Notes: generated by a model not told the origin, from the letters alone. A DNA stretch of 62,445 bases, filler included, from Bilabrum cf. latius (GCA_965178125.1; 4 parts of 4 records of this genome joined end to end with filler, not necessarily neighbours in it), one strand, 5' to 3'. Positions 29,964-55,346 are shown, numbered from the whole stretch's first letter. Translations and numbers: made by a program.

Positions 29964-30815
29964 GGGCGCCTGGATACAATCGAATGGACGTTTCGTCCAT
30001 GTTGATCCTGACGACGGCGGAGCCCGGCGGCCTCTGGGCGGACAGGAACGCGTCCCACTGGAAGCACGCCATGGCCTGTCCATAAACGGCCCCCGGGCCG
30101 CCGCCCGGCCGCAAAACGGGGGACCGGAAATGGCCGCCAAATCGGGCCCGCCCTATTAAAACCCATACTAGGCGGCCGCCAAATGGCGGCAACGGCCTTC
30201 TCCCGCAACACGGTGGCGCCCAGAGCAGGCCCGGGACGGGCTGCTGCCCAGCGAATGCCCCAGCGCCGACGCCAGCGCCGCACCCACTGCCGCGCCCCTC
30301 TCGGGACTGTCGTCGCCGGCGCGGCCAACGCGGCATCGCCCCTCCAGGCCCCTGGCTCTGGATGCTTCCAGCGAGCCCACACCTGGCTGTAGCTCGGCGT
30401 CAACCCCTGGGCCCGGTTGACGTCCGCGACCCATGCCGTCAGTTTCCGCTGCTTTTGCGGCTGCGGCGTTCGCCTCTGCGGCGGCCAGATCTGCCGGCGG
30501 CGGCTTGAGGCTCGGGGCGCCCCCTTCGCTGGATGATGCCGCCGCCGCGTCGGCGACGGAGCGACCCCCTGCGAGATAGGCCGCCGCAGCCTTCTCGCCA
30601 TCCGCGCCGCCGACGCGGCGAGCAACGCAACTCGCCACTTCAGCCCGGCGCGGCTGCCTTTTCCGCTTGCCGGCCCCTCGACGGGCCTCGTCCGCCAACC
30701 GGCGGAGTTCTGACCGCACCGCCGCTGCATCAGCGGCGGCTTTCCGGCGCTGCTCTCGCAAGTGCGTCAGGCCGCCCGGCTTTGCCGGGCCAAGACGTGC
30801 AAGGTGGTCGGCCAT
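29964..30815 (-). CDS. DDE transposase, N-terminal part (cut by contig start)
   Basis: Copy of 44879-45872 with two internal deletions. Confidence 0.75.
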
Positions 30816-31973
30816 ATCCGAAAACGGGGTTCGAGGCAAGACGCCGGCGACTCAGTGGATGCCCTCGCCCGACCAGGGCCTGTCGAATGTAGTAGCCGGG
30901 ATGCTTCCTGCGCCCAACCCCCTTTACCTGCCAGACACCCTTGTCATGGCTCCCGCACTGTCCACGGAAATGGGGAGGGGGCTTATGACTGTACCAGTGT
31001 CGAACCCCTGCGAACAGGGTTCCGCCTTTGACCCGTCATGGGGCTTGGGCCCGAAAGGGTCCCGGTCCCCGGCCCGCTGGCCCTGGGATACCTGGAGCCC
31101 CTGAGCTGCCTGTGCCGAGGCCCCTGGCTCTCGGGCGCCCCGCTCGTAAGAAAAGTGCTGGCCATGGCTTACCTGATCACATGATCACTTGGGCTCGCAC
31201 AAGCTCGGGGGCAGGGGGCGGGCGGGGGGGGGGCATGACGGAGGCCTCGCGGCGAGTTGGGGGTGGGTCGGAAGGAGTCCATGCCATTGCGCGGTCCGCT
31301 CTCAGGGCTTTTCGCCGCCCGGGCGTTCCACGCAGAAGCGCCCTTCGGCGCGCAGGCGGAGTCTGCGGGGCGGGGCGGCGGCGGCCCGCCGAGCGGCGGC
31401 GCCTCCGCAGGCGGAGCCGCCGGGGTCGGCGGGCAAGGGGGCGCTCGGAAGCGTCGAGCGCCCCAAAGTTGCAGGAGCTCGCGGGCAACCGCGATGCTCG
31501 GTGTTGCCATGACTACTGTACCTGAGATGCGAGTGCCTGCGTTCCTGGGCTGCACCCCGGTGAACAGACCAGGCCCCTGGCTCTGGCGACCCCACCCCCT
31601 CCAGCCCCAAAACTTCTCGGCCATGGACTGCCCTCGTGCCCATGACCCTGACGCCCGCCAGCCCGGCCGACCACCCGTCCCGCCGTCCAGCCGGCCACAC
31701 CGCCACACCGGCCCCTCTGCCTGCCCGCCCGCCCGCTCTCCTGCCCGGCCGCCCAGCCACCCTCTCGCGTCCGACTCCCCTTTACCAGGAAAAAACGTCC
31801 CCGGAGCACGCTTGAGGGGCGACCCGGTTCCAAGGCCCAATGCTGACAGACAGGGTGCTGCTGATGCCTCCCTCGTGTTGCTGCTGGCGCTGGCCCCTGG
31901 CTCAGCCGCTCGCGGCAGCCCTCACGGAAGCTGCTGGCGCTGGCCCCTGGCTTCCCCTGCCCCGCGCCGGCCC

Positions 31974-34088
31974 TCAGTCGTCGGCGCCGTCGGCGTCGTC
32001 CACCACGCAGTTGTCGTACCAGTCGTCGCCAAGGAAGTGCGACCAAACTTCGTAGTTGAACATCTGGCGCAGGGCCAACGTCATGGGGGGGAAACTCAGG
32101 GAGGCACTCTGCTCCACCTCCACTGGTTTGTACCACGCTGTGTCCCAGTCCTTGGAGCTGTCTCGGGTGTGCGGGGGGGGGGGGGGGGGGGGGGGGATGC
32201 CGAGGGGGGCGATCTGGCCGGAAAGATCAACCTGATGAGCCCCGGGGCCTCGGGCCTTTTCCGGGTCTTTCCCTCTTTTTTTCGCCGCCGGTCCTTGGCG
32301 CCGGGGTCTTGCGAGAACCGCCGACGGCAGTACATCCGCACTGCCTGCCGTCGCTTCCGACGGGCCCCATCTGTCGCCCACCTGTCGCCCTCGGGCACGT
32401 CCTCCCAGAGCGGCGTGGTCGCGAAGACTTCTGCGAGGCGCGTGATGGGACACGGCCTGCAACCTCTCTGGAGCCTGAAACCGTCGGGGTCGAACCTAAC
32501 CCCCGCTAGCCCCGCCGCCGGATCCTCGTCGACGTCCCCCCTGTTTTTCTTCTTCCGGGGCCTCTGGCTCCCGGATCTCGAGGAGGCCGCTGCCTCAGCC
32601 CGAGGGGCCTGCCGCCAGTACGCGGCCTCCTGCTGCTGAGTAAGCTTCGGGCCTACCCACTGGCCCCAGTAGTCCAGCCACCAGCGGTTCCACAACCGCT
32701 GCTGCCACACTGGGTCATGCCAGTGTGTGGGGGGGGCGATTCGGTGACCCAATGGAGATTCGGCGCGTTCAAGTCGAGCTTGCAAATCCATTCGGGACCC
32801 CCTGAGGACCGGGGGAGGCCCAAATATCGGGCCCCCCTTCTCGTCGTGAAAGCCATTTCCCACCCACGGTTGCCCGAACGTGCTGCAACGCACTCCGATG
32901 CCCTTCTCGCAGCCGGAGACATGGCTCTCGAATGAGCCCAGCGACGGGTACAAGAAGCAACTGCCGACACTTTCGTCGGGCGTTTTGGCAGCGTCCATCA
33001 GGAACCATTGCCTCAACAAGAGGTCACAATGCTCCGGCTTCTGCCGCTGGAGCCACGGCAAGTACTCGCGGGCGAATGCTGGCGTGAACAGGACCATCAT
33101 GGATCCATGTGACGGCTGCTGCCTTCGGCCCTTGCCTGTGCGACCGTCCCAAGAGGCCCAAATCATGTTACCGCGGGCATGTCTGTCGGCCTCCGTGGCC
33201 ATGTGCACAAGGTCAATGAGCTCTGGGCTGGGACGAGTCTCCGGGAAATCGGGCGACCAACCGAAGAAAGTTCTCCCCTTCCCGCGGGTCTCCGGCCCCT
33301 GGCTCGAAGCACCGGACGCGGCAGTCTCCGGGGGGGTGGGCTTCCGGGGCTCGACAGAGGAGGAGCCCCGGGCTTCAGAGGCCCCGGCGGGCGGGGGGGG
33401 AGGGGCCGTTCCGGCCGGCGTAGGCTGGTGGGCCAAGAGCTTCTGCATGAGAGTCTTGGGGGGTCTGGACCCCTCGTCTTCCGCGTCGGGAATGCTTTCG
33501 ACTTCGTCGCACCAATCAGGGGGAGTCACTTCCCCCGGTTTTTTCTCGGGCTCCTCTTGCGGTGGCTCCTGGCTCTCCGTCGCGCCGGCTGCGGAGGCCC
33601 CTGGCTCTCCGTCCGCCAGCCCGGCCTTCTCCGCGGCCTCGGCGCGGATGAGGTCGAGGAAGGACTCGTAGCCCGCCTCCTGCCAGTTCGCGCCCTGCTT
33701 CGCGAAGCAGTCCCTTTCGTAGATGCGCATGTCCGCCTCGCAGAAGATGAAGAGCGTGTCACTTGGGTATCGCGGGTCGAGGACATACGGCAACATGACG
33801 TCCTGTGATGTGGGCGGGCGGCCGGGTGTGAGCGGGCATGTGTGGCGTGGGGGGACAGGCGGGCTGGCGGCTGGGAGCGGGCAAGAGGGTGTGGGCGGGG
33901 CGGGCTACGTTTTCGTCAATGGTCCCTCCAGAAGTAGAAGCCGGCTTCTCGCGGCTGGCACTTCGGCTCCCTCTTCGCGCACCTCCCCAGCATCTCCAAC
34001 GCCACGCACGGACGCAGTCGGATGCTGTGGTAGGGCAGCTGCGCCTCGGCCTGCTCGTCCTCGTGGGTGAGGACGATGACCTGATCAT
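31974..34088 (-). CDS. Spliced hypothetical protein with GT25/GT-A glycosyltransferase-like motifs (copy 1)
   Basis: ORF 32096-33796 has LFIFCEAD, HGSMMVLFTPAFAREYL, HCDLLL and YPSLG. Predicted intron 33803-33924 joins GFYFWR to DVMLPY. Some indels. Confidence 0.5.
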
Positions 34089-34113
34089 GGCCGAAATGGG
34101 GGAGGGGGTTGAG

Positions 34114-34680
34114 CTACACTGTGGGCTTTGGAGTCGCTCCGTCGCGACGCTCTTCGCGGAGGCCCCTGGCTCTCCGGCTCACTAGCGCCGCAAAGGCCCG
34201 GCATCCCCCTCCCGCGCCCGCCCCCCGACCCCACCGTTTTCCCCCCGACCCGCCCTCCCCAAAGCGGAGGCCCCTGGCTCTCCGGCTCCAAGCCTGAACT
34301 GAGGAGACCCCCGCCAGTGTTTGACACGAGCCAACCTGTACGGGTCGGCCCTCGATCACTCTCAATCCCTTGGGGCCGTCAAAGCGGATGGGCTTCGCAC
34401 TGAGGATCTCCCGAGCGTATTCGACAGCGGCCCGCTGGAACTCCCGCGCCCGGAGATCCCGCTTGTACTCCCGCTCGCGGACCGTCGGGCCCAAGTCGTC
34501 CGCTGTCGTCGCGAGCTGGGACCGGGCATCCGCGTCGCGCTCCGCCGCTGCCGCCACCCACCTCCCGAAGCTGTCACCTGTGTTCCCCGCGCGTCTCTCC
34601 TGGTGGCGCTCGTAGACGCCGGCGACCCAGGAGTCGCTCCCCCCCTTCGGCCCCCCTTTGCCGCGGCCCTTTCGCCCCAT
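34114..34680 (-). CDS. Hypothetical protein with basic N-terminus (MGRKGRGKGG...)
   Basis: Helical, protein-like ORF on the element coding strand. Second copy ~49148-49719. Confidence 0.55.
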   Translation of the reverse strand: MGRKGRGKGGPKGGSDSWVAGVYERHQERRAGNTGDSFGRWVAAAAERDADARSQLATTADDLGPTVREREYKRDLRAREFQRAAVEYAREILSAKPIRFDGPKGLRVIEGRPVQVGSCQTLAGVSSVQAWSRRARGLRFGEGGSGGKRWGRGAGAGGGCRAFAALVSRRARGLREERRDGATPKPTV

Positions 34681-34852
34681 CACAGCGGGCACGAGCGCGC
34701 TTGCACGAGTTCGCTGGGGGAAAAGCCTCGCGCACGTTTGAGGCTGGAGGCTGAGGTACGGGCTGCACCGCGCCTGTTTGGCGGAGCTCCTGGCTCCCCG
34801 GCAGCCAGGGCCCCTGGCTCCTGGCATGCCGGATGCTAGCCCATGCCCATCC

Positions 34853-35264
34853 TCACGCTGTGCGCGCACTTCGAGACAATTCAAGGCCCGAGAAGGCCGT
34901 TGTGGCGATTCTGCGATCGAAGCGTGGGCCGTGACTCAAACCGCTTCCCAACCACCATGACCGCCGGCAAAACTCCTGGGAATGCAACAAGCCAAGGGGA
35001 ACATCGGACATGTGGCGTTTGTGGTCCAAGCCACCCCTCCCCAACAATAAAAACAACTGGGTCCCGCCACCGGTCTCGGCTTTCCTCGTCCACTCAAACT
35101 GCCCCGACCCTCCCCCCCCCCCCCCGAAGCTGCGAATGGCTAGTCGGATGGTCTTGGTCGATCGGCGGTCGTGCGGGGCACGAACTCTTCCAGCCATCAT
35201 TCCACTGAGGAAGCCCCGCCCTGCTCAGGCGGAGGCAATGCTCCAAAGCACCGTTGTCCGACAT
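34853..35264 (-). CDS. Small family-Y paralog 1 (frameshift near poly-G)
   Basis: MSDNGALEHCLRLSRAG...VPLGLLHSQEFCRRSWWLG aligns with 38798-39178. Confidence 0.45.
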
Positions 35265-35604
35265 GTCTGGGGGCGCGCTGCAACCAACAACACCGGCATG
35301 GAATGACTCTGGCGTGCTCGCATGTTGGCAGAACTGCGACTGTTGCTAGTGGTGTGTCGCTCGCGCAGGCCTCCCGGGCCCCTGGCTCCGGGAGTGCCAG
35401 CGCCTAAAGTTACATACCAAGGTTGCTGTCCTCTGCGGCCCCTGGCGGATTCCCCGGCTCCCGGCCCTCGCGGCCGCTGGCCCTGCGCTCCTGGCTGGCC
35501 CCCGGGCCCCGGTCACTTCACCGCCCCGGCCCCGCAGGGACCGCCCCCATGCACCAGGCCCGGGCCTGGCCGCGGACCTGTTTAACCGGCCCGACAGCGG
35601 CAGA

Positions 35605-35669
35605 CGAACCAGCGGGCCAAAAGATGAATCCCAATAAGTCAGGTAAAACCTTTTGGTCCGCCGGCTTCG
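35605..35669. other. Stem-loop 1 of the repeated intergenic module
   Basis: GAACCAGCGGGCCAAAAG...CTTTTGGTCCGCCGGCTTC. Confidence 0.7.
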
Positions 35670-36377
35670 CGACCCCCTTCCGGCAAATTGGGCCCGGAAA
35701 AGAAGGGCATGGACCGGCCCAGAGCCGGAATCCCTCCCTCCCCCCCCCTTTTCGCCTCGGCCTGGACCCCGATTCGGAAAGCTCAAGCACGGACGGCTGG
35801 AAGCAAGCTGACGGAGATTTGATGCCCGGAAAGAGCGACCCCGACGCCGGGCCCGGGGCCCCGACCCCGGGGCCGGGACCCCGGGCCCGCTCCGCGTCGC
35901 CAGACAAGGCGCAACAGTGCTGAAATCCCCTCGCCTTCCGAGCCGAGCCCGTCCCTGGGGCAGCCCTCGGGTGAATCCGTCCGCCCCCCCGCGGCATGGA
36001 TACCGCATCTGGCAGGGCCATACGCCCCCTCCCCCCGACCGCTTGGAGCACGCGCGCGATCGCGCGAGGTGGACGGCTTTCCCGGTCGATGCTCTCCCCA
36101 ACATGGAACTCCCACATGCTGCTAAAAAAGGAAGCGCCAGCAAAAGAAACGGCTGTACAAGAAGTGCGCGAACCCATGGAACTGTACGAGTCCGCAACGC
36201 GACCGAGGCCCAGGCTCTCAAAAGCGGGCCCGTCGGTGAGATGTGGGCAGCGAGGACCCTGTCTCTCGCATCCAAACGCCGCCCATGCCTACAACCAACG
36301 ACCCGGCATGCCGCTACAAATCCGGGCCCCTGGCTCCGGAGAAAAAGGAAAGCTGTGCGGCGGGAAGCAAGCGCGCC

Positions 36378-36611
36378 TTAGGGAAGCGGGGCAACTTCCC
36401 TGGGATCCAAATCGATCGGCTGGCCGACGCTGACCACGATCACCTCAAAAATCCTGTCTTCCTCCGGGGCCCAAACATCAGGCACAATCCTGAGCTGCAT
36501 CGTCCAATGCCCCTCCTCGTAGTTCACGCGGAGCACTGTGACCGAGGCACGCTGCATGAGCTGTTCAATCAGCATAATGTCAGCCCTGGAATGAGGAGGC
36601 GGCCACGGCAT
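36378..36611 (-). CDS. Small family-Z paralog 1
   Basis: PPP..ADI..IEQL.Q...EEGHWTM aligns with 36937-37170 and 38323-38570. Confidence 0.5.
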   Translation of the reverse strand: MPWPPPHSRADIMLIEQLMQRASVTVLRVNYEEGHWTMQLRIVPDVWAPEEDRIFEVIVVSVGQPIDLDPREVAPLP

Positions 36612-36936
36612 GCTTGCGAGCGATCCGACTGCAAACGGGCACGGCGGGCACGAGCGCGCTGGCACGAAGTCGCTGGGGGAGGGCTCGAGGACACTTGAGG
36701 TAGGAGGCTGAGGTACGGGACATATGCACCGCCCCTGCTGTGCGGATAGGCGCGGCGCGGCCGAGGCCACTGTCGCTCACCTGCGGGACCCTCGGCGAGC
36801 TGCGAGCAGCGCGGACCCTGTCTCACGCATCCGAACGCCGCCCGCGGGCCCAACCACCGACCCGCCATGCCGCGACAAATCCGGGCCCCTGGCCCCGGAG
36901 ACCTAGGAAACCTGTGCGTCGGGAAGCAAGAGCGCC

Positions 36937-37170
36937 TCAGGGACGGGGCGAGTCCTCCCAGTCCGGCCCGTCGCTGTCGCCCCTTTGGTAGAGGCCCAGG
37001 AGGACAACTCCTATGACCCTTGCATTTCCCGGCCATTCGCCCGGGAAGCGCATCAGCACCTCCATACGCCAGTGCGGCTCATCCCAGGACAAGCGAGGCA
37101 CCTGCAGCGGGCGACCCTGAAACAACGACTCAAGAGCCCAAACATCGGCCGGCCGGGTCGGATCCCGCAC
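36937..37170 (-). CDS. Small family-Z paralog 2
   Basis: RPADVWALESLFQG...WDEPHWRMEVLMRF. Confidence 0.5.
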   Translation of the reverse strand: MRDPTRPADVWALESLFQGRPLQVPRLSWDEPHWRMEVLMRFPGEWPGNARVIGVVLLGLYQRGDSDGPDWEDSPRP

Positions 37171-37180
37171 TGGCGGTTTA

Positions 37181-37438
37181 TCATGCGCTGTGTGCTCGCC
37201 GCCCGGCGCTTGCCGCCTCCCTCACTCGTTCAACCACTCGCCGGAGCTTCATATCATCCCCTGAGACCGCTAGTACTGGCACTGGGCGCCCGCTCGCCGG
37301 CACTGCGCGGCGGCCACAGACGAAGCCCACAGCAAGCCCGCATGAGCAGAAGCACCATGCGAAGCAACAACACAACATCGCCAGGGCTGCGAGGAGCAAC
37401 ATGTCGCCCGGGGAAGCTTGGTGTGCGAGCTCTCCCAT
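37181..37438 (-). CDS. Small Cys-rich hydrophobic (possible membrane) protein
   Basis: MLLLAALAMLCCCFAWCFCSCGLAVGFVCG followed by basic residues. Confidence 0.4.
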   Translation of the reverse strand: MGELAHQASPGDMLLLAALAMLCCCFAWCFCSCGLAVGFVCGRRAVPASGRPVPVLAVSGDDMKLRRVVERVREAASAGRRAHSA

Positions 37439-37535
37439 GCTGGCGCCTCAGACGGGACGGAAGACCAGAACCAAAAATGGCTGGGGAGGTCCGCCCTCTG
37501 GTCCCGGCCCCGGGCCTGGCCGCGGGCCAGTTTTC

Positions 37536-37637
37536 GCGGCCGGAATCTGGCCGCGAAACCGGCGGACCAAAAGGTGAGACCCAACAGTCGGGTATCACCT
37601 TTTGGTCCGCCGGTTTGGCGGCCGTTTTCCGGCCGCC
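37536..37637. other. Stem-loop 2 of the repeated intergenic module (perfect 22-bp stem)
   Basis: AAACCGGCGGACCAAAAGGTGA / TCACCTTTTGGTCCGCCGGTTT. Confidence 0.85.
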
Positions 37638-38322: not shown

Positions 38323-38570
38323 TCAGGGACGAGGCGATTCCTCCCAGTCCGGCCCGTCGCTGTCGCCCCTTTGGTAGATGCCCAGAAGGACAACTCCAAT
38401 GACCCCTGCATTTCCCCGCCATTCGCCCAGGAAGCGCATCAGCACCTCCATACGCCAGTGCGGCTCATCCCAGGACGAGCGAGGCACCTGCAGCGGGCCA
38501 CCCTGAAACAACGACTCAAGAGCCCAAACATCCGCCGGCCGGGTCGGAGGCGGGAACGGCTTGGCTACGA
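38323..38570 (-). CDS. Small family-Z paralog 3 (start uncertain)
   Basis: Near-identical to 36937-37170, with the stop in the same position. Confidence 0.5.
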
Positions 38571-38683
38571 GCGCCCCGAACGCAAGGGGCACACCGGGCA
38601 CGCACGCGTTCCCAGGAGCTCGCCGGCGAGCTGTCAAAAGCACACTTGGGGCCGAAGGCTGCCGTACGGGACGCTGGTACCGC

Positions 38684-38775
38684 GCGTCCAGGGCCCCTGG
38701 CTCCTGGCTGGCCGTGCGTCCAGGGGCCCCTGGCTCCTGGCTGGCCGTGCGTCCAGGGCCCCTGGCTCCTGGCTG
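38684..38775. repeat. ~32-bp tandem repeat x3 built on GGCCCCTGGCTC
   Basis: GCGTCCAGGGCCCCTGGCTCCTGGCTGGCCGT repeated. Confidence 0.85.
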
Positions 38776-38797
38776 ATGCGACCCGCGCCGGGCCACA

Positions 38798-39178
38798 TCA
38801 GGGCCACTGGAGGCCGCTGCGGAGATTGTGCTCTCGGAGAGTCGCACCCTGCGTCAACGAGCAACCCAACCACCAGCAGCGCTGGCAAAACTCCAGGGAC
38901 TCGAGGACGCCTATGGGCACCTTGGCATTCGGGAACTGTCGATCCAGCCACAAAAAAACTCGGGCCCGCTGACGATCTGCGCTTTCCTCGTTCACACGCA
39001 GCTGCCCCGACCCCGCAGTAGCAGCGAACGGCATGGTCAAGAGGTCCGTCTTGATCGTTCCCGGCGGGCGCTGGCGCTTCCATTGCTCATACAACTGTAG
39101 ACCCCCCGCCCCGCTCAGGCGGAGGAAATGCTCAGATGCCTGCTTGTCCGCCATGCTGGGGCCCGCGCTGCGGACCAT
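38798..39178 (-). CDS. Small family-Y paralog 2
   Basis: MADKQASEHFLRLSGAG...VPIGVLESLEFCQRCWWLG. Confidence 0.5.
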   Translation of the reverse strand: MVRSAGPSMADKQASEHFLRLSGAGGLQLYEQWKRQRPPGTIKTDLLTMPFAATAGSGQLRVNEESADRQRARVFLWLDRQFPNAKVPIGVLESLEFCQRCWWLGCSLTQGATLREHNLRSGLQWP

Positions 39179-39502
39179 ACAATTTGCGACGAGGACAAAG
39201 CATGGCGCGCGCGCACGGTCGCACGAGTGCGACGCCAGGCAAGATTCTGAGGCGCGCGAGGAACTCCCGGGCCCCTGGCTCCGGGAGGGCCTGCGCCAAC
39301 CCCCCCTTCACACTGACATACAAACGTTGCTCTCCCCTGTGACACCTGGCGGATTCCCTAGCTCCGGGCCCTGGCGCCCGGCGGCCTTGTGCCCCTTGCT
39401 GCCCCCCCCGGCCCCGTTCACTCCAGCGCCCCGGCCCCGCCCGGCCCGCCCCACGCTCCGGCCCCGGGCCTGGCCGCGGGCCCGTTTAGGCAGCCGGTAA
39501 AC

Positions 39503-39578
39503 GGCCGCGAAACGGCCGGGCCAAAAGGTGAAACCCAGGTAATCGGGTATCGCCTTTCGGCCCGCCGGTTTCGCGGCC
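39503..39578. other. Stem-loop 3 of the repeated intergenic module
   Basis: GGCCGCGAAACGGCCGGGCCAAAAGGTGAAACCC...GGGTATCGCCTTTCGGCCCGCCGGTTTCGCGGCC. Confidence 0.8.
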
Positions 39579-40268
39579 ATTTTCCGGCAATATGGTCCCA
39601 GGTACTATAGTCATGAACAGGCCCGCTTGCGGACTCTCCTCCGCCCACCCATTCTTCGCCACGGCCTCGACTCCGATGCGAAAAGCCAATGCCGGGCCGG
39701 CTGGAAGCACTCCGTCGGGAACTCGACGCCCGCGTCCCGGACCCCGACGCCGGGCCCGAGCCCCGGACCCCAGGGCCGCGACCCCGAGCCCGCTCCGGAG
39801 TGTGCCCAAAAGTGCACCTGTGAGGAATTCCCGTCGTCATCCGAGCCAATCCCATCCCTGGGACACTCATGGGGCAAGCCGCTCGAGCATTAGACGCTTG
39901 GAAACCCATCTCACCGGCCATCCGCCCCCCATCCCCGCCGTCGTCTGGAGCACAACTCGCGCGACGCGCACGACAGCGCGCGCTTTCCCCCGTCGATGGG
40001 CTCCCCTACATCGAACTCCCCACATGCCGCCTTCTGAATGCGGCACGAACAAGAGAAACAGCTATACAGGAAAAAAAAAAAAGGTTCCCATGCAACTGTA
40101 CAGACCGGCTGCGGTACCGAGGACCCCGTCTCTCGGATGCTCGCCCCTCGGAGAGCTGCGGACGGCGAAGACCCTGTCTCTCGCATGCGGAAATCCGGGC
40201 CCCTGGCTCCGGCAAATGCCCGACAAAGCCGGGCCCCTGGCTCCGGAAACATTCGGGCAATGTCTTCT

Positions 40269-42144
40269 TCACCCCGACTGCGTCGGGAGATAGTCGACCG
40301 AGGCGGCCGTCCACATCGGTTCCAGGACATGGATGTAGAAGCTGTTGTATATCAGCCATTTCGCGTCCTCCCAAGCCAACTGGCAGAGGCGGACCCGCCA
40401 CACATTCGAGCACACAACGAACTTCTTGCCCGCCACACAAACCGCATAGCTGTAGCAATTCGTCATGCTCGTTTGCATGGATACCATTCCGGGGCCCGCT
40501 TGAAACAGCTTCTTCGCATCGACGATCTGCTGCGGGTCCGCCTCGTCGAACAGGAGCACTTCGTGCACCGAGGGATCGTAGGCCTTCATGTCGATGGTCG
40601 CTCCTCCCGCCAGGGAAATCTCCAGAGTCCTCTCGTCGCCCGCCAGGGCACGGCAGAACGCCGTTTTGCCCATACGGGAGGGTCCATCGAGGACGAGGAA
40701 GCTGTACCGGTCAAGAACCTGGCTATACTGTGCCTCCCAGAGGGAGACCGCGGCGTACTTCCGCCAGGGTCGTTTCACCTCGTCGCTGTTCCTTCGTCGC
40801 CAATCCCTGTAGGCAGCGACGCTGCTCTCGAGCTGCGCAGTCCGCCAGCTTTCCAGATTCTGCAAGTTCCGCACAATCCCGTTCGGGATCTTGCAGATCT
40901 CCGCGCGCGCCACATCATAGAGCATCTTGGATGCCTCAAGGCTCGAAAATATCCATGTCGCTCCAACGGGGTAGCCCTCGTGCGGGGGCGTCGTCGTGTC
41001 ACTGTACAGGCACGAGGCTTTCGAGCTGTGCAGGTAGTACAACACAGACCCCTGGCTCTTGCCCCGTCCGCCCTGGTTGCTTCGCACATGAGCTTGGACG
41101 TCCCCCCATTTCCAAGCGTCCGCTTCCGGCATGTAAAACTTGCGGTTGTGGGCGAGAGCCAAGTGACAGTGCACCCGGATGGTGCCGTCTGCCAGCCAGG
41201 ACTTGGAGCAGACCTCCATACACCAGGCGGCCTTGCCCATCTCCCCCACAATGCCCCGGACGCTCGCCGTGAATTCCGCGAATTCCGCCCACCGCGCCTG
41301 TACAACCGGGTGCGCGCGAACGCACCCCGCGAGTTCCGCAATTAACCGCGTCTCTTTTTCCCAATGGAAGTCCGCCATGGACAGCACCCTCCGCGGCGAG
41401 CCTGCAGCACCCTCCCAGCAGGGAGGACGGGGATACCCAGCCGGGTAATCCTGGAAGAGAGGACCGGGAGGAGGCTCCGGCCCCTCCACTGGCGCCATCT
41501 CGGAGGCCACTGGCTCTCCGACCCCTGCAGGAGGCCCCTGGCTCTCCTCCGTTGGGCGAGTACAGAACGCCCCAAGCCGGTAGCCATGTGCACAGGACCG
41601 ACGTCGTGCGGACCTTGTTCGAAGCGTCCCGCTGGTTTTTGGCGAGGTACCACACCGCGATCTGGGAATCCTGCGGGCAGTCGTGCACAAAAGCTTTCAC
41701 TAGTTCCTCCCTTTCCTCGAAGGGCCTCGTCTTTCGCAAGCTGTACTGACGGTGGAGTCTAAACTGTTGGGCCCTGCACTTCGTAGCATACCCAGTTCGG
41801 TGTTTCCACCAATATCCGTATTTGTTCAAGAAACGCTTCCCTAGCGCCGCCGGGTCCTCGGCCATGCCCATCAACCACGCCTGTTCTTCTTCACCGACGC
41901 CTTCTGACGGCGCGGACGCCGAAGAGACTGCCGCCACGGCACCTGGGTCGGGCTGCTTCCATCTCATACGTCGCCGCGCGCGGGGCGGTTCCTCCCACAG
42001 GACCACCGCAGCGTCATGCTCCATGGGCTCGCTGTCAGCCTCCATGCGGTTCCCACCCCCCCGCAACTCTATGACCGAAGCGACAACAATGGTATATGCA
42101 AAAGACCCCGGACCAAAACGGCTGCGAAGACATAAAAAACGCAC
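40269..42144 (-). CDS. rep: HUH endonuclease-SF3 helicase Rep, copy 1 (5-nt deletion at ~41530 shifts the frame)
   Basis: Same protein as 55347-57227, split over two ORFs. Confidence 0.85.
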
Positions 42145-42458
42145 CTCACCGCTGCCCGGCTCAAGGGGACTGGGATCACTCCCGCGGGGACCTTCAATCT
42201 CGGGCCTTCCGAACGGAAACCCCTTTCAGACATGTTCGGAAAAGGGCACCCCTCAATGGGCTTCTGGGTCATCGAACGGCAAGTCCGACCCGGGCTCGGA
42301 GACATGTTCCATGACTACGGCTTTCCCATGCTCGGAGACCGCTGAGGGGAGACGGAGGGCGGGGTGGCTGGGTCCCCTCCGAGGCGAAAAAGGCCAAAAA
42401 AAAAGCAAAAAAGCCAATAAGGCAAAAAAAAACCCCCAAAAAATGGGGAAAACGTGAA

Positions 42459-42613
42459 ATTCAGACGAAACGCGTTTTTATGGACAATATTAAGCGCCAG
42501 AATGGACAGTTTCGTCTGAATCGACCCTTTTTGCCCTTCACAATATGGGGGAACGGATTCAGACGTGGAGTTCACGAATTTTTCCGAATCGCTTCACAAT
42601 ATGGGGGAACGGA
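42459..42613. promoter_or_regulatory. Candidate rolling-circle origin/iteron region upstream of rep (copy 2 at ~57539-57693)
   Basis: 13-bp inverted repeat around TAATATT (minus strand) and two 22-bp direct repeats CTTCACAATATGGGGGAACGGA. Confidence 0.45.
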
Positions 42614-42824
42614 AAATCGCAAAAAGTGAGCAGTCTCATTTACCACGTTGTCAGGCGCTTTTTGGCTTTTTTCCCCTGATCTCGCGGGAGGGGGCGGGGG
42701 GGGGGGGGTCTGGGAGGGCCCCCGGGCCCGATTTGGCCGGAAATTGGCCGATTTATATAGGGCGCCTTATTAGGACCGCTAGGGGGAATTCGGAGGGGCC
42801 CAGAAACCCCGATTTTTGGGGCTG

Positions 42825-43140
42825 GCCCGGGCCCCGCCCGGGCCGGGGCCGGGGCCGGGCCGGGGCGGGCCGGGGCCCGGGCCGGGGCAGGGGCCGGGGG
42901 CCGGGGCCGGGGCCGGGGCCGGGGCCGGGGCCGGGCCGGGGCGGGCCGGGGGCCGCCGGGGGCCGGGGCCGGGGTCGGGGCCGGGGCCGGGGCCGGGGCC
43001 GGGCCGGGGCCGGGCCGGGGCCGGGGCCGGGGTCGGGGGCGGGCCGGGGCCGGGGCCGGGGCCGGGGCCGGGGCCGGGCCGGGGGCCGCGGGGCCGGGCC
43101 GGGGGCCGGGGCCGGGGCCGGGGCACGGGCCCGGGCCGGG
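42825..43140 (+). repeat. (GGGGCC)n G-rich tract (copy 2 at ~57905-58220)
   Basis: Direct reading. Confidence 0.9.
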
Positions 43141-43359
43141 GCTGGCCCAACCCATTCCGTCGGGCTTCCCCACTCGACCATTCTTGTCCGGCGTCAACAT
43201 GGCAACTTGGCTAAGCCCGCACTGCCCCCCCACATGCCTGAACGGAGGCCGCTGCGTCCTTTTCAAAGGCGCGCGAACGGCACGCCAACTCAGCCTGCGC
43301 GAGGCTAAATGCGGAAATCCCCCCAAAAAGCGCGGAACCGGCCGTCCCCTTCCTGTCGC

Positions 43360-43887
43360 CTACTCTTCGCGACGCTCGTCCTCCTGCAGTCCCATATCCA
43401 CATCCGCATCCGCGCGGCGCGCTTCCGAGGCTTCCGGCTCTGGGCTGTTCTCGCGCCGTTCCCCGTCCTCGGGCAAGTCGGCACGCCCTTCCGCGGGACG
43501 TTCCCTTTCGCCGGACGCACCGTCTGGCGCGGCTTTGGTCGCGGGCTCGGGCGCGGCCCCTGAGCTCTGGGACACGCTGCCTGGGGCAGCGTCGTCGTCG
43601 CCGGGGCCCCTGGCTCCCGAGGCGCTGCGCGCCGCTGCGTCTTTGCGCATAAGGAGGACCGCCACGAGATCCTCGGAGCTCATCAAGCGGGTGCGACGCC
43701 GCAGTCGCTGCTGCTTTTTCGTCGCGTTCCGAACGGCCCTGGAAAGTTCTTTCTTCTCCTGCCGCACGCGCGCTTGTTGCGCCCGCAAAGCCTCGATTTG
43801 CTCTTTCAAGGGATCCGAGGGCAGATGCTCAAAGACCGACGCTTTTGCCTCTTTCAAGGAGGCCGCGGCGGCGGGCGAGGACGCCAT
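43360..43887 (-). CDS. Basic coiled-coil hypothetical protein (175 aa; copy 2 ends at 58439)
   Basis: LKEQIEALRAQQARVRQEKKELSRAVRNATKKQQRLRRRTRLMSSEDLVAVLLMRK heptad pattern. Confidence 0.7.
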   Translation of the reverse strand: MASSPAAAASLKEAKASVFEHLPSDPLKEQIEALRAQQARVRQEKKELSRAVRNATKKQQRLRRRTRLMSSEDLVAVLLMRKDAAARSASGARGPGDDDAAPGSVSQSSGAAPEPATKAAPDGASGERERPAEGRADLPEDGERRENSPEPEASEARRADADVDMGLQEDERREE

Positions 43888-45872
43888 GGCCACAAGCGCA
43901 CGCCCACGGGGAAGGCAGGATGCCCGCGCGCACTCGGGGCGGGTCGAGCGACCGGGCCGGGCTCGGGGTCTGGCACAGCTGCATGCGAGGTGCTCCGGGT
44001 GCGGCCTCGCCAAGGCGCCGCGGCGGCGCTCGGCGCGACATCGCCGGGGCCCCTGGCTCCCGGTCGTGGCACCCGGGGGTGGCCGCCGACTGGAACATGC
44101 ACCAGCAGGCTTCGAAACAAGAGTTCGATGGGGATGTCCCTGCGGGCTGGGAATATGGCTTGCAGCTGCGCCAAGCTGGGAAGGCTTGCTGGTGCGGGCG
44201 CGAGGGGCGGAGACCCCAGGGCCGCGAGAAAGCGCCGCGAGGTGGGGGGCCCGTCGTGCAAGCCGCAGAGAGCGAAGGCCCTGGCCCAGGACCGAGAGCT
44301 GAGGACCCCGTTGAGGCTCATTCCCAGCACACCCAAAACGTCTCGCACCCCCAGCTCCGCCCGCCCCCTGCGCAACTGCAGCTCCACATACCGACCCCGA
44401 ATGTGCTGTTTCAAGGCCGCAAATACTGCGACATCCAAAGGCTGTAGCCATCGGGTCGCGGATGCTGGTATCAAATGGTAGCGCAAGCCTGCTGCAGCAA
44501 CGGTCTTCATGACCGCCGGTGCCGAGTGGACGGGGCATGCGTCAAGGCTGAAGATGAAGACCCTCCCATGGGCGACGGGTTTCAAACAGGCGGCCAGGAG
44601 CCGCACGATGTCGCAGAGCACAGCGGCATTTAGCCACGCCGACTTCCGGCGAATGAGGAAGACCCTGTCTTTCCGGCCGCGCACGAAGTCAGCCGCCACA
44701 CCCTGAGGCACAAGGCGGTCGTTGGCCACCAGAATCTGGGGGAGAAGAGGCTGTATTTCTGGAGTGTCGGTGACAAATGCGCAGAGGGAGAGACACCCAC
44801 GCTGAGCATTCAGGCTCACTTTCTGCTCCAACGCCGTTCCCCGGCCGCCGGGGCCGGGGAGCGCCACTGCGCCGCGAGGGGCGCCTGGATACAATCGAAT
44901 GGACGTTTCGTCCATGTTGATCCTGACGACGGCGGAGCCCGGCGGCCTCTGGGCGGACAGGAACGCGTCCCACTGGAAGCACGCCATGGCCTGTCCATAA
45001 ACGGCCCCCGGGCCGCCGCCCGGCCGCAAAACGGGGGACCGGAAATGGCCGCCAAATCGGGCCCGCCCTATTAAAACCCATACTAGGCGGCCGCCAAATG
45101 GCGGCCAGAATCGGGCCCCAGTTTTTTCCCGGGTCGGCCCCGGGGCCCGTTTCCAGGGACGCCCCCCCCGGGCCCCACGGAGCCCCCCCCGGGCCCTTTT
45201 GCATGGGCCGAGCCCTGGTGACACCGCAACGGCCTTCTCCCGCAACACGGTGGCGCCCAGAGCAGGCCCGGGACGGGCTGCTGCCCAGCGAATGCCCCAG
45301 CGCCGACGCCAGCGCCGCACCCACTGCCGCGCCCCTCTCGGGACTGTCGTCGCCGGCGCGGCCAACGCGGCATCGCCCCTCCAGGCCCCTGGCTCTGGAT
45401 GCTTCCAGCGAGCCCACACCTGGCTGTAGCTCGGCGTCAACCCCTGGGCCCGGTTGACGTCCGCGACCCATGCCGTCAGAGCCCGCTCGCGGCAATACTT
45501 TTCCGCTGCTTTTGCGGCTGCGGCGTTCGCCTCTGCGGCGGCCAGATCTGCCGGCGGCGGCTTGAGGCTCGGGGCGCCCCCTTCGCTGGATGATGCCGCC
45601 GCCGCGTCGGCGACGGAGCGACCCCCTGCGAGATAGGCCGCCGCAGCCTTCTCGCCATCCGCGCCGCCGACGCGGCGAGCAACGCAACTCGCCACTTCAG
45701 CCCGGCGCGGCTGCCTTTTCCGCTTGCCGGCCCCTCGACGGGCCTCGTCCGCCAACCGGCGGAGTTCTGACCGCACCGCCGCTGCATCAGCGGCGGCTTT
45801 CCGGCGCTGCTCTCGCAAGTGCGTCAGGCCGCCCGGCTTTGCCGGGCCAAGACGTGCAAGGTGGTCGGCCAT
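43854..45872 (-). CDS. Pogo/Fot-like DD35D (DDE_1) transposase with predicted GC-AG intron 44991-45233
   Basis: INMDETS, FSLDACPVH and IPASATRWLQPLDVAVFAALK, with 35 residues between the 2nd and 3rd Asp. Confidence 0.85.
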   Translation of the reverse strand: MADHLARLGPAKPGGLTHLREQRRKAAADAAAVRSELRRLADEARRGAGKRKRQPRRAEVASCVARRVGGADGEKAAAAYLAGGRSVADAAAASSSEGGAPSLKPPPADLAAAEANAAAAKAAEKYCRERALTAWVADVNRAQGLTPSYSQVWARWKHPEPGAWRGDAALAAPATTVPRGARQWVRRWRRRWGIRWAAARPGPALGATVLREKAVAVSPGLGPCKRARGGLRGARGGRPWKRAPGPTREKTGARFWPPFGGRLVWVLIGRARFGGHFRSPVLRPGGGPGAVYGQAMACFQWDAFLSAQRPPGSAVVRINMDETSIRLYPGAPRGAVALPGPGGRGTALEQKVSLNAQRGCLSLCAFVTDTPEIQPLLPQILVANDRLVPQGVAADFVRGRKDRVFLIRRKSAWLNAAVLCDIVRLLAACLKPVAHGRVFIFSLDACPVHSAPAVMKTVAAAGLRYHLIPASATRWLQPLDVAVFAALKQHIRGRYVELQLRRGRAELGVRDVLGVLGMSLNGVLSSRSWARAFALCGLHDGPPTSRRFLAALGSPPLAPAPASLPSLAQLQAIFPARRDIPIELLFRSLLVHVPVGGHPRVPRPGARGPGDVAPSAAAAPWRGRTRSTSHAAVPDPEPGPVARPAPSARGHPAFPVGVRLWPWRPRPPPRPP

Positions 45873-55100: not shown

Positions 55101-55346
55101 CATGCCGCCTTCTGAATGCGGCACGAACAAGAGAAACAGCTATACAGGAAAAAAAAAAAAGGTTCCCATGCAACTGTACAGACCGGCTGCGGTACCGAGG
55201 ACCCCGTCTCTCGGATGCTCGCCCCTCGGAGAGCTGCGGACGGCGAAGACCCTGTCTCTCGCATGCGGAAATCCGGGCCCCTGGCTCCGGCAAATGCCCG
55301 ACAAAGCCGGGCCCCTGGCTCCGGAAACATTCGGGCAATGTCTTCT

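Follow-up and report, generated by a model that had tools for sequence, protein, structure and literature searches.

AAV Rep binds GAGC repeats (RBE) in a hairpinned stem, and the ACCA motifs of MVM NS1 are scattered over the whole genome. In rolling-circle replicons, single-strand origins (sso) are orientation-specific stem-loops that start second-strand synthesis and convert the displaced strand to duplex, as described in the part of PMC4595007 available to us. Among HUH systems, the accessible portion of PMC10288648 mentions IS200/IS605 and distinguishes Replitron transposases, which have no helicase, from Helitrons, in which a Y2 Rep is fused to an SF1B helicase.

The window, i.e. the whole stretch of 62,445 nt analysed here, consists of four contigs joined via N-TTAATTAATTAA-N linkers. 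Contig 2 holds tandem units of about 15.04–15.08 kb each that are 97.7–99.2% alike, and no host DNA flanks them within this contig (29964–59245). The joint 45225->30189 is present in contigs of all four public runs (4/4) and fits a tandem array or a circle alike. Each 15-kb unit encodes a Rep, a pogo-type DDE protein and a 600-aa protein, all on one strand (window -). The main features are:

29964..59245, no strand assigned: contig 2, two head-to-tail element units (unit 1, 30189-45225; unit 2, 45226-59245, incomplete)
32096..33904, - strand: conserved 600-aa gene, function unassigned, with homologues in 8 related loci and P0001
40269..42045, - strand: Rep gene, unit-1 copy, frameshifted, with a 5-bp gap near 41529
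55347..57128, - strand: Rep gene, unit-2 copy, intact, 593 aa
43854..45908, - strand: pogo-type DDE_1 transposase-like gene, conserved in relatives L003, L011 and L015
42459..42521, - strand: origin-like stem-loop some 415 nt upstream of the Rep ATG; stem 13 bp, loop 37 nt, AT-rich and including TAATATTGT
42536..42612, - strand: pair of iteron-like 21-nt direct repeats next to the origin-like stem-loop (copies 42536-42556 and 42592-42612)

Unit 2 and other runs carry GCGTT in place of the gap near 41529. Motifs of the intact unit-2 copy (RVHCHLAL for HUH, YYLHSSK as the Tyr motif, GPSRMGKT for Walker A, LFDEAD for Walker B and VVCSN for motif C) and the fold of the predicted model both mark Rep as an HUH nuclease with an SF3 helicase. 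The model has a pLDDT of 83.6 and its best folds are AAV2 Rep68, CRESS-virus Rep and papillomavirus E1; the best structural match, AAV2 Rep68 on the AAVS1 site, shares only about 11% sequence identity. For the 600-aa protein we obtained weak leads only, to GT25/GT-A glycosyltransferase. The origin-like stem-loop at 42459–42521 is a feature separate from the 12-mer hairpins described below. Stem-loops of the same type occur in L039 and twice in L044, where the loops carry AAnTATTA words on the Rep-sense strand. As the nonamer of the window is nearly palindromic (TAATATTGT versus CAATATTAA), the strand call rests mainly on L044.

The initial annotation described a 12-mer, GGCCCCTGGCTC, present in about 20 exact copies per unit and only on the + strand, and proposed a cis signal analogous to Chi/KOPS or serving second-strand priming, packaging or protein coating. 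We found 39 exact matches, all 39 on the + strand and all inside contig 2, against 0.07 expected and a largest value of 1 in 100 dinucleotide-preserving shuffles. Unit 1 contains 20 copies and unit 2 contains 19; the counterpart missing from the exact set lies at about 48326 and has lost one C from its C-run. Since the two units are near-identical, these copies represent about 20 sites, not 39. All 18 positions named at first were recovered, and 38725 and 38757 were additional in unit 1. Matches with one mismatch in contig 2 number 14 on + and none on -, and those with two mismatches 25 on + and 20 on -. The GC-rich first contig (29.9 kb, GC 0.634), from which the motif had been said to be absent, indeed has no exact copy; it has two one-mismatch matches, both on -, and two-mismatch matches at 8 on + and 9 on -. 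Internal duplication, which the initial annotation had itself raised as a possible full explanation, does not account for the copies, whose flanks are dissimilar. Over 40 nt on either side, comparison of the 20 copies in unit 1 gave a median identity of 0.30, with a value above 0.5 for just one of 190 pairs. Once the 33-bp tandem triple at 38692/38725/38757 and two pairs of paralogues are allowed for, about 16 independent sites are left in unit 1.

Rather than a linear word, the 12-mer forms the constant upper part of a small stem-loop. Perfectly complementary arms of 3–6 bp, differing in sequence from copy to copy, enclose 17 of the 20 exact unit-1 copies. On the gene-sense (window -) strand, where the 12-mer reads GAGCCAGGGGCC, the hairpin has the form 5'-(3-6 variable nt)-G-A-G-C-[C-A-G-G-G]-G-C-C-(complement of the variable nt)-3'. 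It measures 18–24 nt. Above a lower stem of variable sequence come a G:C pair, the bulged A, one G:C and one C:G pair, and finally the five-base loop. The sites are:

30347..30358, + strand: exact core, arms 4 bp (tcca/tgga); - strand reads GAGCCAGGGGCC; loop C>T at 30351 in runs X3, X7 and X10
31119..31130, + strand: exact core, arms 4 bp (ccga/tcgg)
31572..31583, + strand: exact core, arms 3 bp (cca/tgg)
31892..31903, + strand: exact core, arms 3 bp (gct/agc)
32559..32570, + strand: variant core GGCCTCTGGCTC with a single change in the loop, arms 5 bp, within the 600-aa gene
33294..33305, + strand: exact core, arm 1 bp only, within the 600-aa gene, in the alignment column of a hairpin of relative L003
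33596..33607, + strand: exact core, arms 4 bp (cgga/tccg), within the 600-aa gene, translated EPGA
34161..34172, + strand: exact core, arms 4 bp
34269..34280, + strand: exact core, arms 4 bp
34809..34820, + strand: exact core, arms 5 bp
35377..35388, + strand: exact core, arms 6 bp, paralogue of the 39270 copy
36254..36265, + strand: variant core GGACCCTGTCTC (sense GAGACAGGGTCC), arms 4 bp; core pair C4:G10 replaced by A:T, both sides changed and pairing kept; paralogues at 36813 and 38199 without arms
36325..36336, + strand: exact core, arms 4 bp; one-mismatch paralogues at 36884 and 38270, arms 4 bp each
38692..38703, + strand: exact core, arms 4 bp, first of the 33-bp tandem triple
38725..38736, + strand: exact core, arms shifted by one extra G, second of the triple
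38757..38768, + strand: exact core, arms 4 bp, third of the triple
39270..39281, + strand: exact core, arms 6 bp
40198..40209, + strand: exact core, arms 3 bp, some 60 nt past the Rep stop codon
40232..40243, + strand: exact core, arms 3 bp, some 26 nt past the Rep stop codon, with a hairpin at the equivalent place in many relatives
41505..41516, + strand: variant core GGCCACTGGCTC with a single change in the loop, arms 5 bp, in the Rep variable linker, translated EPVA
41533..41544, + strand: exact core, arms 4 bp, in the Rep variable linker, EPGA in the intact unit-2 frame
43605..43616, + strand: exact core, arms 3 bp
44048..44059, + strand: exact core, arms 4 bp, within the DDE gene
45384..59138, + strand: 19 exact unit-2 copies, 12 nt each, counterparts of unit-1 copies, starting at 45384, 46176, 46630, 46968, 48628, 49195, 49305, 49853, 50430, 51395, 53765, 53798, 53830, 54348, 55276, 55310, 56616, 58684 and 59127

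To compare the hairpin across its family we used 60 related Rep loci from metagenomes. In the 61 sequences (248.6 kb, near-duplicate loci included), the pattern GAGCC-N4-GCC was counted 193 times in Rep-sense and 8 times in antisense orientation, bearing out the idea that the signal would be present in homologous Rep elements. By strand, contig 2 has 49 and 0 matches; contig 1 has 4 and 0, none with arms. Complementary arms of at least 3 bp flank 40 of the 49 matches in the whole of contig 2 and 120 of 165 unique hairpins family-wide, compared with 310 of 5000 random positions. When 150 of 164 unique hairpins were aligned by the core alone, the arms covaried with a score of 0.395 versus 0.146 in shuffles (0 of 500 as high), and slid controls reached a maximum of 0.199. 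The core pairs form in the MFE fold of 123 of these 150 hairpins with RNA parameters and of 116 with DNA parameters; with the latter, stability is only modest (mean -5.1 kcal/mol in 28-nt windows versus -3.6 for shuffles).

On the Rep tree, each clade has its own four letters in the loop (AGGG, AGGC, CCTC, TGTC, TCTC and CACC; clade support 97–100). Placement is blind to coding: 100 of 192 copies lie in conserved ORFs, which make up 51% of bases, and all three frames are used (55/35/10), in agreement with the original view of a motif that occurs in coding and intergenic DNA alike. Density is even, with a mean spacing of 494–571 nt in five elements ranging in GC from 0.50 to 0.67. The CV of spacing is 0.63–0.76 in four of the five versus about 0.9 for random placement; that of the window itself is 1.01, no more even than random. 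Several Rep clades have no such hairpin, including L014, L016/17, L020 and L027, and it is therefore not essential to this Rep family.

Taken together, the notion of a polar cis signal of the Rep element is strongly supported, whereas that of a linear 12-mer is not, given a hairpin top with covarying arms. For the same reason the Chi/KOPS analogy, i.e. words read on duplex by a translocase, is the least fitting of the functions first proposed; second-strand priming, packaging and protein coating, all signals read on single-stranded nucleic acid, remain live.

We tentatively favour a reading in which the stem-loop is recognised, on the single strand displaced by rolling-circle replication, by an element-encoded protein that handles or re-primes this strand. 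About 20 hairpins on one strand of a 15-kb Rep element, every ~0.5 kb and in genes as well as between them, would fold on the Rep-sense (window -) strand once it is displaced and single-stranded. Their reader would be a protein of the element with lineage-dependent specificity, for which the origin-binding domain of Rep is the prime candidate. With so many copies, the long displaced strand could be bound and made duplex from many places, as if by miniature single-strand origins. A rolling-circle replicon is supported by the motifs and fold of Rep and by the separate TAATATT origin-like stem-loop upstream of rep. Moreover, G exceeds C on the Rep-sense strand in 23 of 25 loci and T exceeds A in 22 of 25, a pattern expected where a strand is more often single-stranded. 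That the strand read is DNA rather than RNA is an inference, as are the binding protein and the priming or handling role. Against this reading, known single-strand origins are larger and come one or two to a replicon, instead of as 20 small structures. Polarity, base skews and hairpins would also look alike if the signal acted in sense RNA, as all genes lie on one strand.

An RNA-level element, in which hairpins in sense transcripts bind an RNA-binding protein (for stability, export, translation or RNA packaging), is the strongest alternative, though we consider it unlikely. The architecture, with a bulged base, a defined loop and a free stem sequence, resembles that of IRE- or MS2-operator-type hairpins, folding is stronger with RNA (mean -9.7 kcal/mol), and in the window as in relatives all hairpins are on the same strand as the three conserved genes. 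A hairpin also lies -23 to +79 nt from the Rep stop in the window, L002-L007, L010-L013, L015, L021/22 and L052, a possible place for a 3'-end signal. However, stable hairpins within ORFs hinder translation, so that a density equal in and outside ORFs, in all frames, is unusual for an mRNA regulatory element. Internal arm mismatches show no excess of G:U over A:C (6 G:T versus 5 A:C), and the 50 versus 17 at positions 1–4 is inflated by register-shifted rows; these mismatches separate neither RNA from DNA nor strand from strand. Somewhat less probable again is a virus-like genome whose stem-loops are coat or nucleoprotein contacts on an encapsidated single strand. The dispersed signals of ssRNA viruses and HBV have the same architecture, as far as the available parts of PMC6281560 and PMC7612645 describe them; the ~0.5 kb spacing is conserved across elements, the loop changes with lineage, and in run X3 the element has a very high summed depth and many variants. 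Yet we recognised no capsid-like gene with Pfam or PHROGs (only DDE_1 among 122 window ORFs and 150 ORFs of relatives with Pfam; no match with PHROGs), a viral contig collection yielded no relative, and known packaging signals are degenerate whereas these hairpins are nearly invariant.

We regard it as improbable that the hairpins are weak origin copies, secondary sites at which Rep can nick or rejoin the displaced strand for initiation or termination. HUH nucleases do recognise hairpins, according to the accessible portion of PMC10288648, and the loop is specific to each Rep clade, but a separate AT-rich TAATATT origin-like stem-loop lies upstream of rep, also in distant relatives, and the GC-rich hairpin loops are unlike its loop. 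Twenty active nicks would cut the unit into subgenomic circles, and 5 of 44 end points of the listed X3 joints lie within 20 nt of a hairpin, no enrichment over the expected 7–9%. More doubtful still is a functionless by-product, whether selfish or mutational, with the 12-mer written into ssDNA either enzymatically, by the element's own HUH or DDE protein, or through template switching at short palindromes. Insertion into the displaced single strand gives IS200/IS605-type elements one orientation, and the same would follow here from insertion solely into that strand; the exact cores with unrelated arms fit, and a 12-nt insert preserves the reading frame. Nevertheless, several copies lie in homologous genes of equal length without a gap and so arose in place, density is similar across lineages, and 7 pairs of related loci showed no presence/absence polymorphism with an empty site. 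L044 and L053, at 79% DNA identity, have retained sites in common, and some sites are orthologous between lineages whose proteins are 31–38% identical. Least probable of all is a word read on the duplex, either a Chi/KOPS-like translocase guide or a pogo/CENP-B-like array of DDE binding sites. It would account for the extreme polarity, CENP-B boxes recur in one orientation in satellite arrays, and DDE proteins of the pogo type, one of which the element encodes, have sequence-specific DNA-binding domains. However, a flanking inverted repeat would be superfluous for a duplex word, and the arms covary strongly; Pfam found no RecBCD- or FtsK-like gene in the window or among the ORFs of relatives, and the DDE gene was detected in only 4 of the loci, many contigs being partial.

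Comparing the element with known systems, parvovirus Rep is close in that AAV2 Rep68 is the best fold match and the hairpin core also begins with GAGC. Parvovirus Rep/NS1 sites, however, are repeats in duplex DNA that lack both the bulge-and-loop hairpin and a strict polarity. Chi and KOPS octamers share the short length and the strong strand bias across a whole replicon, but they are linear words of bacterial chromosomes without flanking symmetry, read by RecBCD or FtsK, whereas here the arms covary and no such enzyme is encoded. REP/BIME with RAYT and the end hairpins of IS200/IS605 are likewise short and HUH-linked and owe their orientation to ssDNA. Whereas those are copied from a master sequence, have conserved stems, are located outside genes and accompany Y1 transposases without a helicase, the stems described here all differ, half of the copies are in genes and Rep has an SF3 helicase. 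Replitrons and Helitrons are also eukaryote-associated elements with a Rep-class HUH nuclease; the Rep of our element instead combines one Tyr motif with an SF3 helicase, and a DDE gene is also carried.

The sso of rolling-circle plasmids and ICEs resembles the hairpins in acting in cis in a Rep-driven replicon, in one orientation and as stem-loops when single-stranded, as the available part of PMC4595007 relates. There are one or two sso per replicon, of several stem-loops each, read by host RNA polymerase or primase, in contrast to about 20 tiny hairpins per 15 kb that also lie in genes and whose loop follows the Rep clade. Packaging signals of ssRNA viruses and of HBV pregenomic RNA are genome-wide stem-loops with a common loop motif and variable stems in the accessible text of PMC6281560 and PMC7612645. 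They differ in being RNA, degenerate and bound by a known coat protein, whereas the element is a DNA replicon with a nearly invariant motif and no recognised coat gene. Finally, the origin of CRESS-DNA viruses, with its nonanucleotide NANTATTAC, is a stem-loop used by an HUH-SF3 Rep, and its counterpart here is the stem-loop at 42459–42521 with TAATATTGT. That feature is AT-rich and present once, upstream of rep, whereas about 20 GC-rich 12-mer hairpins are spread all over the element. These form a second signal, distinct from the CRESS-type origin feature, and have the look of a genuine control signal of the Rep element that had not been described before.

The 12-mer GGCCCCTGGCTC is present in 39 exact copies in the window against an expectation of 0.07, all of them on the plus strand and all in the second contig. 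The initial annotation had described this word as repeated on one strand only and missing from the first contig, and both observations hold: the minus strand carries none, and contig 1 contains no exact copy. Copies with one mismatch share this polarity, with 14 on the plus strand of the second contig and none on the minus strand. Internal duplication, which had been named as a possible explanation, accounts for few copies. The flanks of the 20 copies in unit 1 (the first of two copies of a repeat filling this contig) are unrelated, with a median identity of 0.30 and values above 0.5 in 1 of 190 pairs, and duplicated copies are limited to a 33-bp tandem triple and two paralogous pairs.

As all three genes of the unit lie on the minus strand, the 12-mer in its originally described orientation is antisense to the genes. 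Each copy is flanked by a pair of short inverted arms whose sequence varies among the copies (for example tcca/tgga, cgga/tccg, ccag/ctgg and ctcccg/cgggag), with at least three perfectly complementary bases per side in 17 of the 20 unit-1 copies. On the gene-sense (window minus) strand the core reads G1 A2 G3 C4 C5 A6 G7 G8 G9 G10 C11 C12 and forms the top of a small stem-loop, in which G1 pairs with C12, G3 with C11 and C4 with G10, A2 is bulged and positions 5-9 constitute the loop. In the window version of the core, C5:G9 pairing is also possible. A variant at 36254 (sense strand GAGACAGGGTCC) carries A:T in place of C4:G10, both sides having changed.

The four contigs of the window (1-29863, 29964-59245, 59346-61345 and 61446-62445) are separated by linkers of the form N44-TTAATTAATTAA-N44. 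The whole of the second contig consists of two head-to-tail copies of a unit of ~15.04-15.08 kb (unit 1, 30189-45225; unit 2, 45226-59245, incomplete) with a mutual identity of 97.7-99.2%. Part of the differences between the two are single-base gaps within homopolymer runs, which could be assembly noise or genuine. When contigs of four public sequencing runs were compared with one unit, the joint from unit end to unit start was present in all four; thus the element is tandem or circular wherever it was seen. The stretch occurs in public runs of at least six coded organisms from 10 studies. In one of these runs, X3 (2.9 billion letters), the summed contig depth over 30189-45225 ranges from 8,000 to 277,000 and 18,239 contigs match the unit, many only 85-95% alike, which points to a highly abundant and varied population of related units within this sample. 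An Rfam scan of the window gave no family match, a tRNA scan gave three tRNA-like calls, all in contig 1 and apparently spurious, and codon-position GC in contig 2 did not mark the genes.

Features of the 15-kb unit (window coordinates)
32096-33904, minus strand: conserved 600-aa gene; one database homologue (33% identity) and homologues in eight related loci
35214-36384, 37488-38329 and 39104-40186: three paralogous non-coding modules, ~1.1 kb each, ~72% alike, without a conserved ORF
37556-37616 (also 52623-52683): second family-wide hairpin, its long stem perfectly paired over 22 bp in the window; one per paralogous module
42459-42521: origin-like stem-loop, 13-bp stem and 37-nt loop with TAATATTGT, in an AT-rich region ~415 nt upstream of the Rep ATG
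43854-45908, minus strand: pogo-type DDE gene, placed by the protein atlas among pogo/Tigger-like clusters, mostly eukaryotic
55347-57128, minus strand: intact Rep gene of unit 2, 593 aa

The ORF at 40269-41696 on the minus strand has 40 homologues in metagenomes. Their alignment reveals an HUH motif, a YYxxxK motif and the Walker A, Walker B and motif C of an SF3 helicase, with H294/H296, Y339/K344, G461-K462(-T463), D502-E503 and S548-N549 invariant in 31 sequences. A 5-bp gap near 41529 shifts the reading frame of the unit-1 gene. At this site, whose unit-2 counterpart is the stretch 56600-56616, unit 2, contigs of the runs X1, X7 and X10 and part of those of X3 carry GCGTT and encode an intact 593-aa protein. 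Searches against Pfam, PHROGs and PDB sequences, including a profile search, returned no match. The AlphaFold model (pLDDT 83.6) had its best Foldseek matches in AAV2 Rep68 (E 5.7e-6), Vientovirus Rep (a CRESS-virus Rep, as a double hexamer), papillomavirus E1 and B19V NS1; the multidomain nature of the model keeps the TM-scores low (0.15-0.38). Motifs and structural matches together identify the protein as a Rep, and its catalytic motifs and Rep/SF3 fold match those of HUH-SF3 Rep replicons.

Upstream of rep, the AT-rich region contains a TATA-like box near 42760 and an origin-like region (42459-42612, also 57539-57692) in which two 21-nt direct repeats lie beside the stem-loop. This region resembles a classical Rep origin. 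Like stem-loops, with ...ACGAAA... in the stem and TAATATTAA or AAnTATTA in the loop, occur in the distant relatives L039 (at 121) and L044 (at 1102 and 1721), and in L044 the origin words are on the hairpin-bearing strand. Between the DDE gene and the origin-like region lies a (GCCGGG)n microsatellite of ~52 copies (42836-43142, GC ~0.88), which has almost no contig cover in the public runs. On the Rep-sense strand, G exceeds C in 23 of 25 loci and T exceeds A in 22 of 25, skews that would be predicted for a strand spending more of its time single-stranded, either in replication or as the non-template strand in transcription. The head-to-tail joint, the origin-like stem-loop and the skews are indirect signs, read from sequence, that the element may replicate by a rolling circle with a single-stranded intermediate.

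Among 122 ORFs of the unit and 150 ORFs of its relatives, Pfam recognised only DDE_1 (pogo-type). Three distant relatives (L003:10200-11750, L011:8372-9685 and L015:5796-7094) carry homologues of the DDE gene, at 31-39% identity, on the strand that encodes Rep, which makes this gene a core gene of the larger elements and rules out a stray transposon inside the element. The 600-aa protein matched nothing in Pfam or PHROGs. Its model is poor (pLDDT 47), the best Foldseek matches are GT25/GT-A glycosyltransferases at E 0.13 or worse, and the protein atlas scored below 0.9, with a Glyco_transf_25 cluster at rank 20. As weak leads, motifs, fold and atlas point to a possible GT25/GT-A glycosyltransferase; if so, the Rep element would, unusually, carry an enzyme that transfers sugars. 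Of the nine loci that carry the 600-aa gene, six have at least five canonical hairpins, one (L014) has a single hairpin and the other two have variant motifs; five longer loci lack both gene and hairpins, many of these contigs being partial. The peptide PSPSPA occurs six times in variable regions of P0001, a 600-aa-protein homologue encoded on a 5.7-kb contig; this suggests that the element of P0001 bears another repeated nucleotide motif read through in frame.

All three paralogous modules carry a canonical 12-mer hairpin as well as the long second hairpin and a GAGACAGGGTCC variant. One 415-bp part occurs at both 36748-37162 and 38134-38548, with 95% identity between the two. The second hairpin, whose loop contains GAC(A/T)GTC, recurs in relatives at L053:5704-5766 (28-bp stem), L044:6602, L037:7370, L009:1701, L027:4971 and L018:2829.

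Several features indirectly suggest a eukaryotic host. In contig 1, the ORF at 1-1035 encodes CCCH zinc fingers, and the plus-strand ORF at 1345-12195 encodes 3616 aa in which A, R, P, S and D abound. This long ORF matches no Pfam domain and shows no GC bias by codon position; the contig resembles a GC-rich eukaryote and not a bacterium. The pogo-type DDE gene, the aquatic origin of the metagenome relatives and the lack of Rep relatives in one genome each of 185,579 prokaryote species point the same way.

Scanning metagenome contigs with the Rep alignment yielded 60 related loci, each set with Rep on the plus strand, from marine and freshwater metagenomes; viral contigs contained no Rep relatives. 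K-mer counts and flanks revealed in many of these loci a strand-exclusive 12-mer of the form GAGCC-N4-GCC, confined to the Rep-sense strand and set between variable inverted arms. The recurrence in homologous Rep elements that the initial annotation had proposed to look for is therefore borne out, with 193 sense and 8 antisense occurrences over 61 sequences (248.6 kb, near-duplicates counted). The loop letters follow well-supported clades on the Rep tree.

Hairpin cores in related Rep loci (Rep-sense strand)
L003: core GAGCCAGGCGCC; sense 19-21, antisense 0, in 11.7 kb
L011: core GAGCCTGTCGCC; sense 18, antisense 0
L015: core GAGCCTGTCGCC with one extra 5' T; sense 16, antisense 0
L018: core GAGCCTCTCGCC; sense 11, antisense 0
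L053 and L044: core GAGCCCACCGCC; sense 7, antisense 0 (L053)

Loop letters by Rep clade
AGGG: window
AGGC: L002/L003
CCTC: L004
TGTC: L011-13, L015, L019
TCTC: L018, L021/22
CACC: L037, L040-44, L053

No such hairpin was found in several Rep clades (L014, L016/17, L020/23/24, L026/31 and L027), and a de novo search of hairpin-less clades for a substitute dispersed loop motif returned local tandem repeats only. Other repeats on the Rep-sense strand include 55-bp spaced repeats with CGGCCTGACGG in L016 (150-1378) and L017, 24-nt tandem repeats in L010 (16-566) and eight copies of GAGCGTTCCGCC, without clear arms, in L032.

Across the family, arms of at least 3 bp flank 120 of 165 unique hairpins versus 310 of 5000 random positions (6%). 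For covariation, 150 of 164 unique hairpins were aligned by the core alone, the 14 left out being the last in sort order (L052-L058). The named structure scored 0.395, versus 0.146 for shuffles (0 of 500 as high) and at most 0.199 for slid registers, and double changes number 56-67 at each of the three variable pairs nearest the core. Throughout the family the bulged A and the three top pairs are kept, and the five-base loop varies. Of 150 hairpins, 123 have the core pairs in their MFE fold under RNA parameters (mean -9.7 kcal/mol) and 116 under DNA parameters (mean -5.1 kcal/mol). The hairpin is thus predicted to fold as a stem-loop in single-stranded DNA.

Placement shows little regard for coding. 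ORFs conserved between loci make up 51% of bases and contain 100 of 192 copies, and the in-ORF copies use all three reading frames (55/35/10), in line with the frame independence that the initial annotation had put up for testing. In proteins, the copies fall mostly within variable linkers; those in Rep, for instance, are translated as EPGA and EPVA in the stretch from motif I to the HUH motif. Hairpin density is conserved among elements, with a mean spacing of 571 nt in the window, 551 in L003, 538 in L011, 494 in L015 and 518 in L018. The coefficient of variation is 0.63-0.76 in four of these five elements versus ~0.9 for random placement (individual P 0.03-0.16) and 1.01 in the window itself. 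Relative to the Rep stop codon, a hairpin falls in the interval from -23 to +79 nt in the window, L002-L007, L010-L013, L015, L021/22 and L052, and none lies in this interval in L018, L025, L044 and L053.

Some sites are old. L044 and L053 (79% DNA identity) have hairpin positions in common, and at a protein identity of 31-38% the window and L003 agree in at least one position, within the 600-aa gene. Elsewhere in the comparison of the window with L003, one lineage has a hairpin and the other a degenerate copy or unrelated sequence of the same length. Such same-length counterparts indicate that copies can arise or decay in place, with no indel.

The covarying arms imply that the signal is read on a single strand, and this argues against a duplex word of the Chi/KOPS type, the analogy drawn in the initial annotation; of all readings we give this one the least credence. 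The invariant bulge and top pairs, a loop that follows the Rep clade, long-kept sites and an even, coding-blind density point to a reader encoded by the element and to a role for the molecule as a whole and not for single genes. The helicase-bearing Rep, a separate origin-like region and the presence of the origin words on the hairpin strand of L044 favour a displaced-strand signal, and the nonamer orientation in L044, together with the skews, hints that the hairpin strand may be the displaced one. The reading we prefer, somewhat short of an even chance in our judgement, is that the hairpin is a putative signal on the strand displaced during rolling-circle replication. There it could be bound by an element protein, candidates being the origin-binding domain of Rep (residues ~140-360 of 593) or another product of the element, and the bound hairpins would be used for handling or re-priming the long displaced strand. 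The hairpins may in this way act as many miniature single-strand origins.

Because every gene lies on one strand, a role at the RNA level is conceivable, though we consider it unlikely. Counts of G:T versus A:C mismatches in the arms separate neither RNA from DNA nor one strand from the other. Dispersed packaging signals, as portrayed in PMC6281560 and PMC7612645, are the nearest match in architecture, a reading we consider distinctly unlikely. Pfam and PHROGs recognised no capsid family, although a coat gene may be among the many ORFs that belong to no known family, and viral contigs contain no relatives. Secondary nick sites fit less well and seem improbable, as 5 of 44 end points of the joints listed for X3 lie within 20 nt of a hairpin, which is near chance. 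More improbable still is a selfish origin of the copies: seven alignments of related loci offered a counterpart for every hairpin and no clean presence/absence case, that is, no clean empty site.

Rolling-circle replicons are usually small, one stated reason being that the displaced strand is fragile and returns to duplex from a single site. The 10-16 kb Rep elements described here answer some problem by the same small hairpin about every 500 bases on one strand, a hairpin that overrides coding constraints and whose loop differs between clades. Should the hairpins serve for priming or loading, they would show a route for rolling-circle replicons to grow large; if they are packaging or coating signals, the dispersed-signal idea would be carried from RNA viruses to DNA elements. 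Either way, a cis code and its putative reader protein form a testable pair, and GAGCC-N4-GCC with flanking inverted arms on one strand only is a signature for finding such elements in metagenomes.

To our knowledge, DNA replicons have not been reported to bear a structural code that co-evolves and extends over the whole genome. The literature searched held no account of such hairpins or of the combination of an HUH-SF3 Rep, a pogo-type DDE gene and a conserved 600-aa gene, although an earlier account may exist. It is possible, if doubtful, that the elements form an undescribed class of 10-16 kb Rep/SF3 replicons, probably eukaryote-associated, with pogo-type DDE and 600-aa genes. In such a class, ~20 identical protein-recognition hairpins on one strand, with a five-base loop varying by lineage, would serve as an element-specific 'address code' on the displaced strand by which the element's own machinery, to the exclusion of that of others, finds, primes or packages it.

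Among known systems, REP/RAYT or IS200/IS605-type hairpins are copies of a master hairpin with a conserved stem and depend on a Y1 HUH transposase without a helicase, whereas here the arms differ, the flanks are dissimilar and the Rep has an SF3 helicase. The same helicase led us to reject the element as a Replitron, which, as characterised in PMC10288648, has a Rep Y1 transposase without a helicase and terminal direct repeats. A CRESS-type origin consists of one stem-loop close to rep, its loop containing NANTATTAC, whereas the 12-mer hairpin has the loop C-A-G-G-G and ~20 copies; the separate stem-loop at 42459-42521 partly fits this type.

Like Chi and KOPS, the 12-mer is a strand-skewed oligomer spread over a replicon. 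However, those are linear words that need no flanking symmetry and have a cognate RecBCD or FtsK, whereas the hairpins have covarying arms and Pfam found neither protein among the 122 window ORFs and 150 ORFs of relatives. With dispersed packaging signals, the hairpins share many stem-loops with a common loop motif and variable stems. The nearest known orientation-specific stem-loop signals of rolling-circle replicons are single-strand origins (PMC4595007). These act in one orientation on the displaced strand and promote second-strand synthesis; the hairpins are polar (39:0 in the window, 193:8 in the family) and may lie on the displaced strand. Single-strand origins form stem-loops as single-stranded DNA, as covariation and DNA-parameter prediction suggest for the hairpins. 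Whereas single-strand origins are one or few large structured regions per replicon, the element has ~20 hairpins of 18-24 nt per 15 kb. We rate the signal as belonging among the orientation-specific stem-loop signals of single-stranded replicons.
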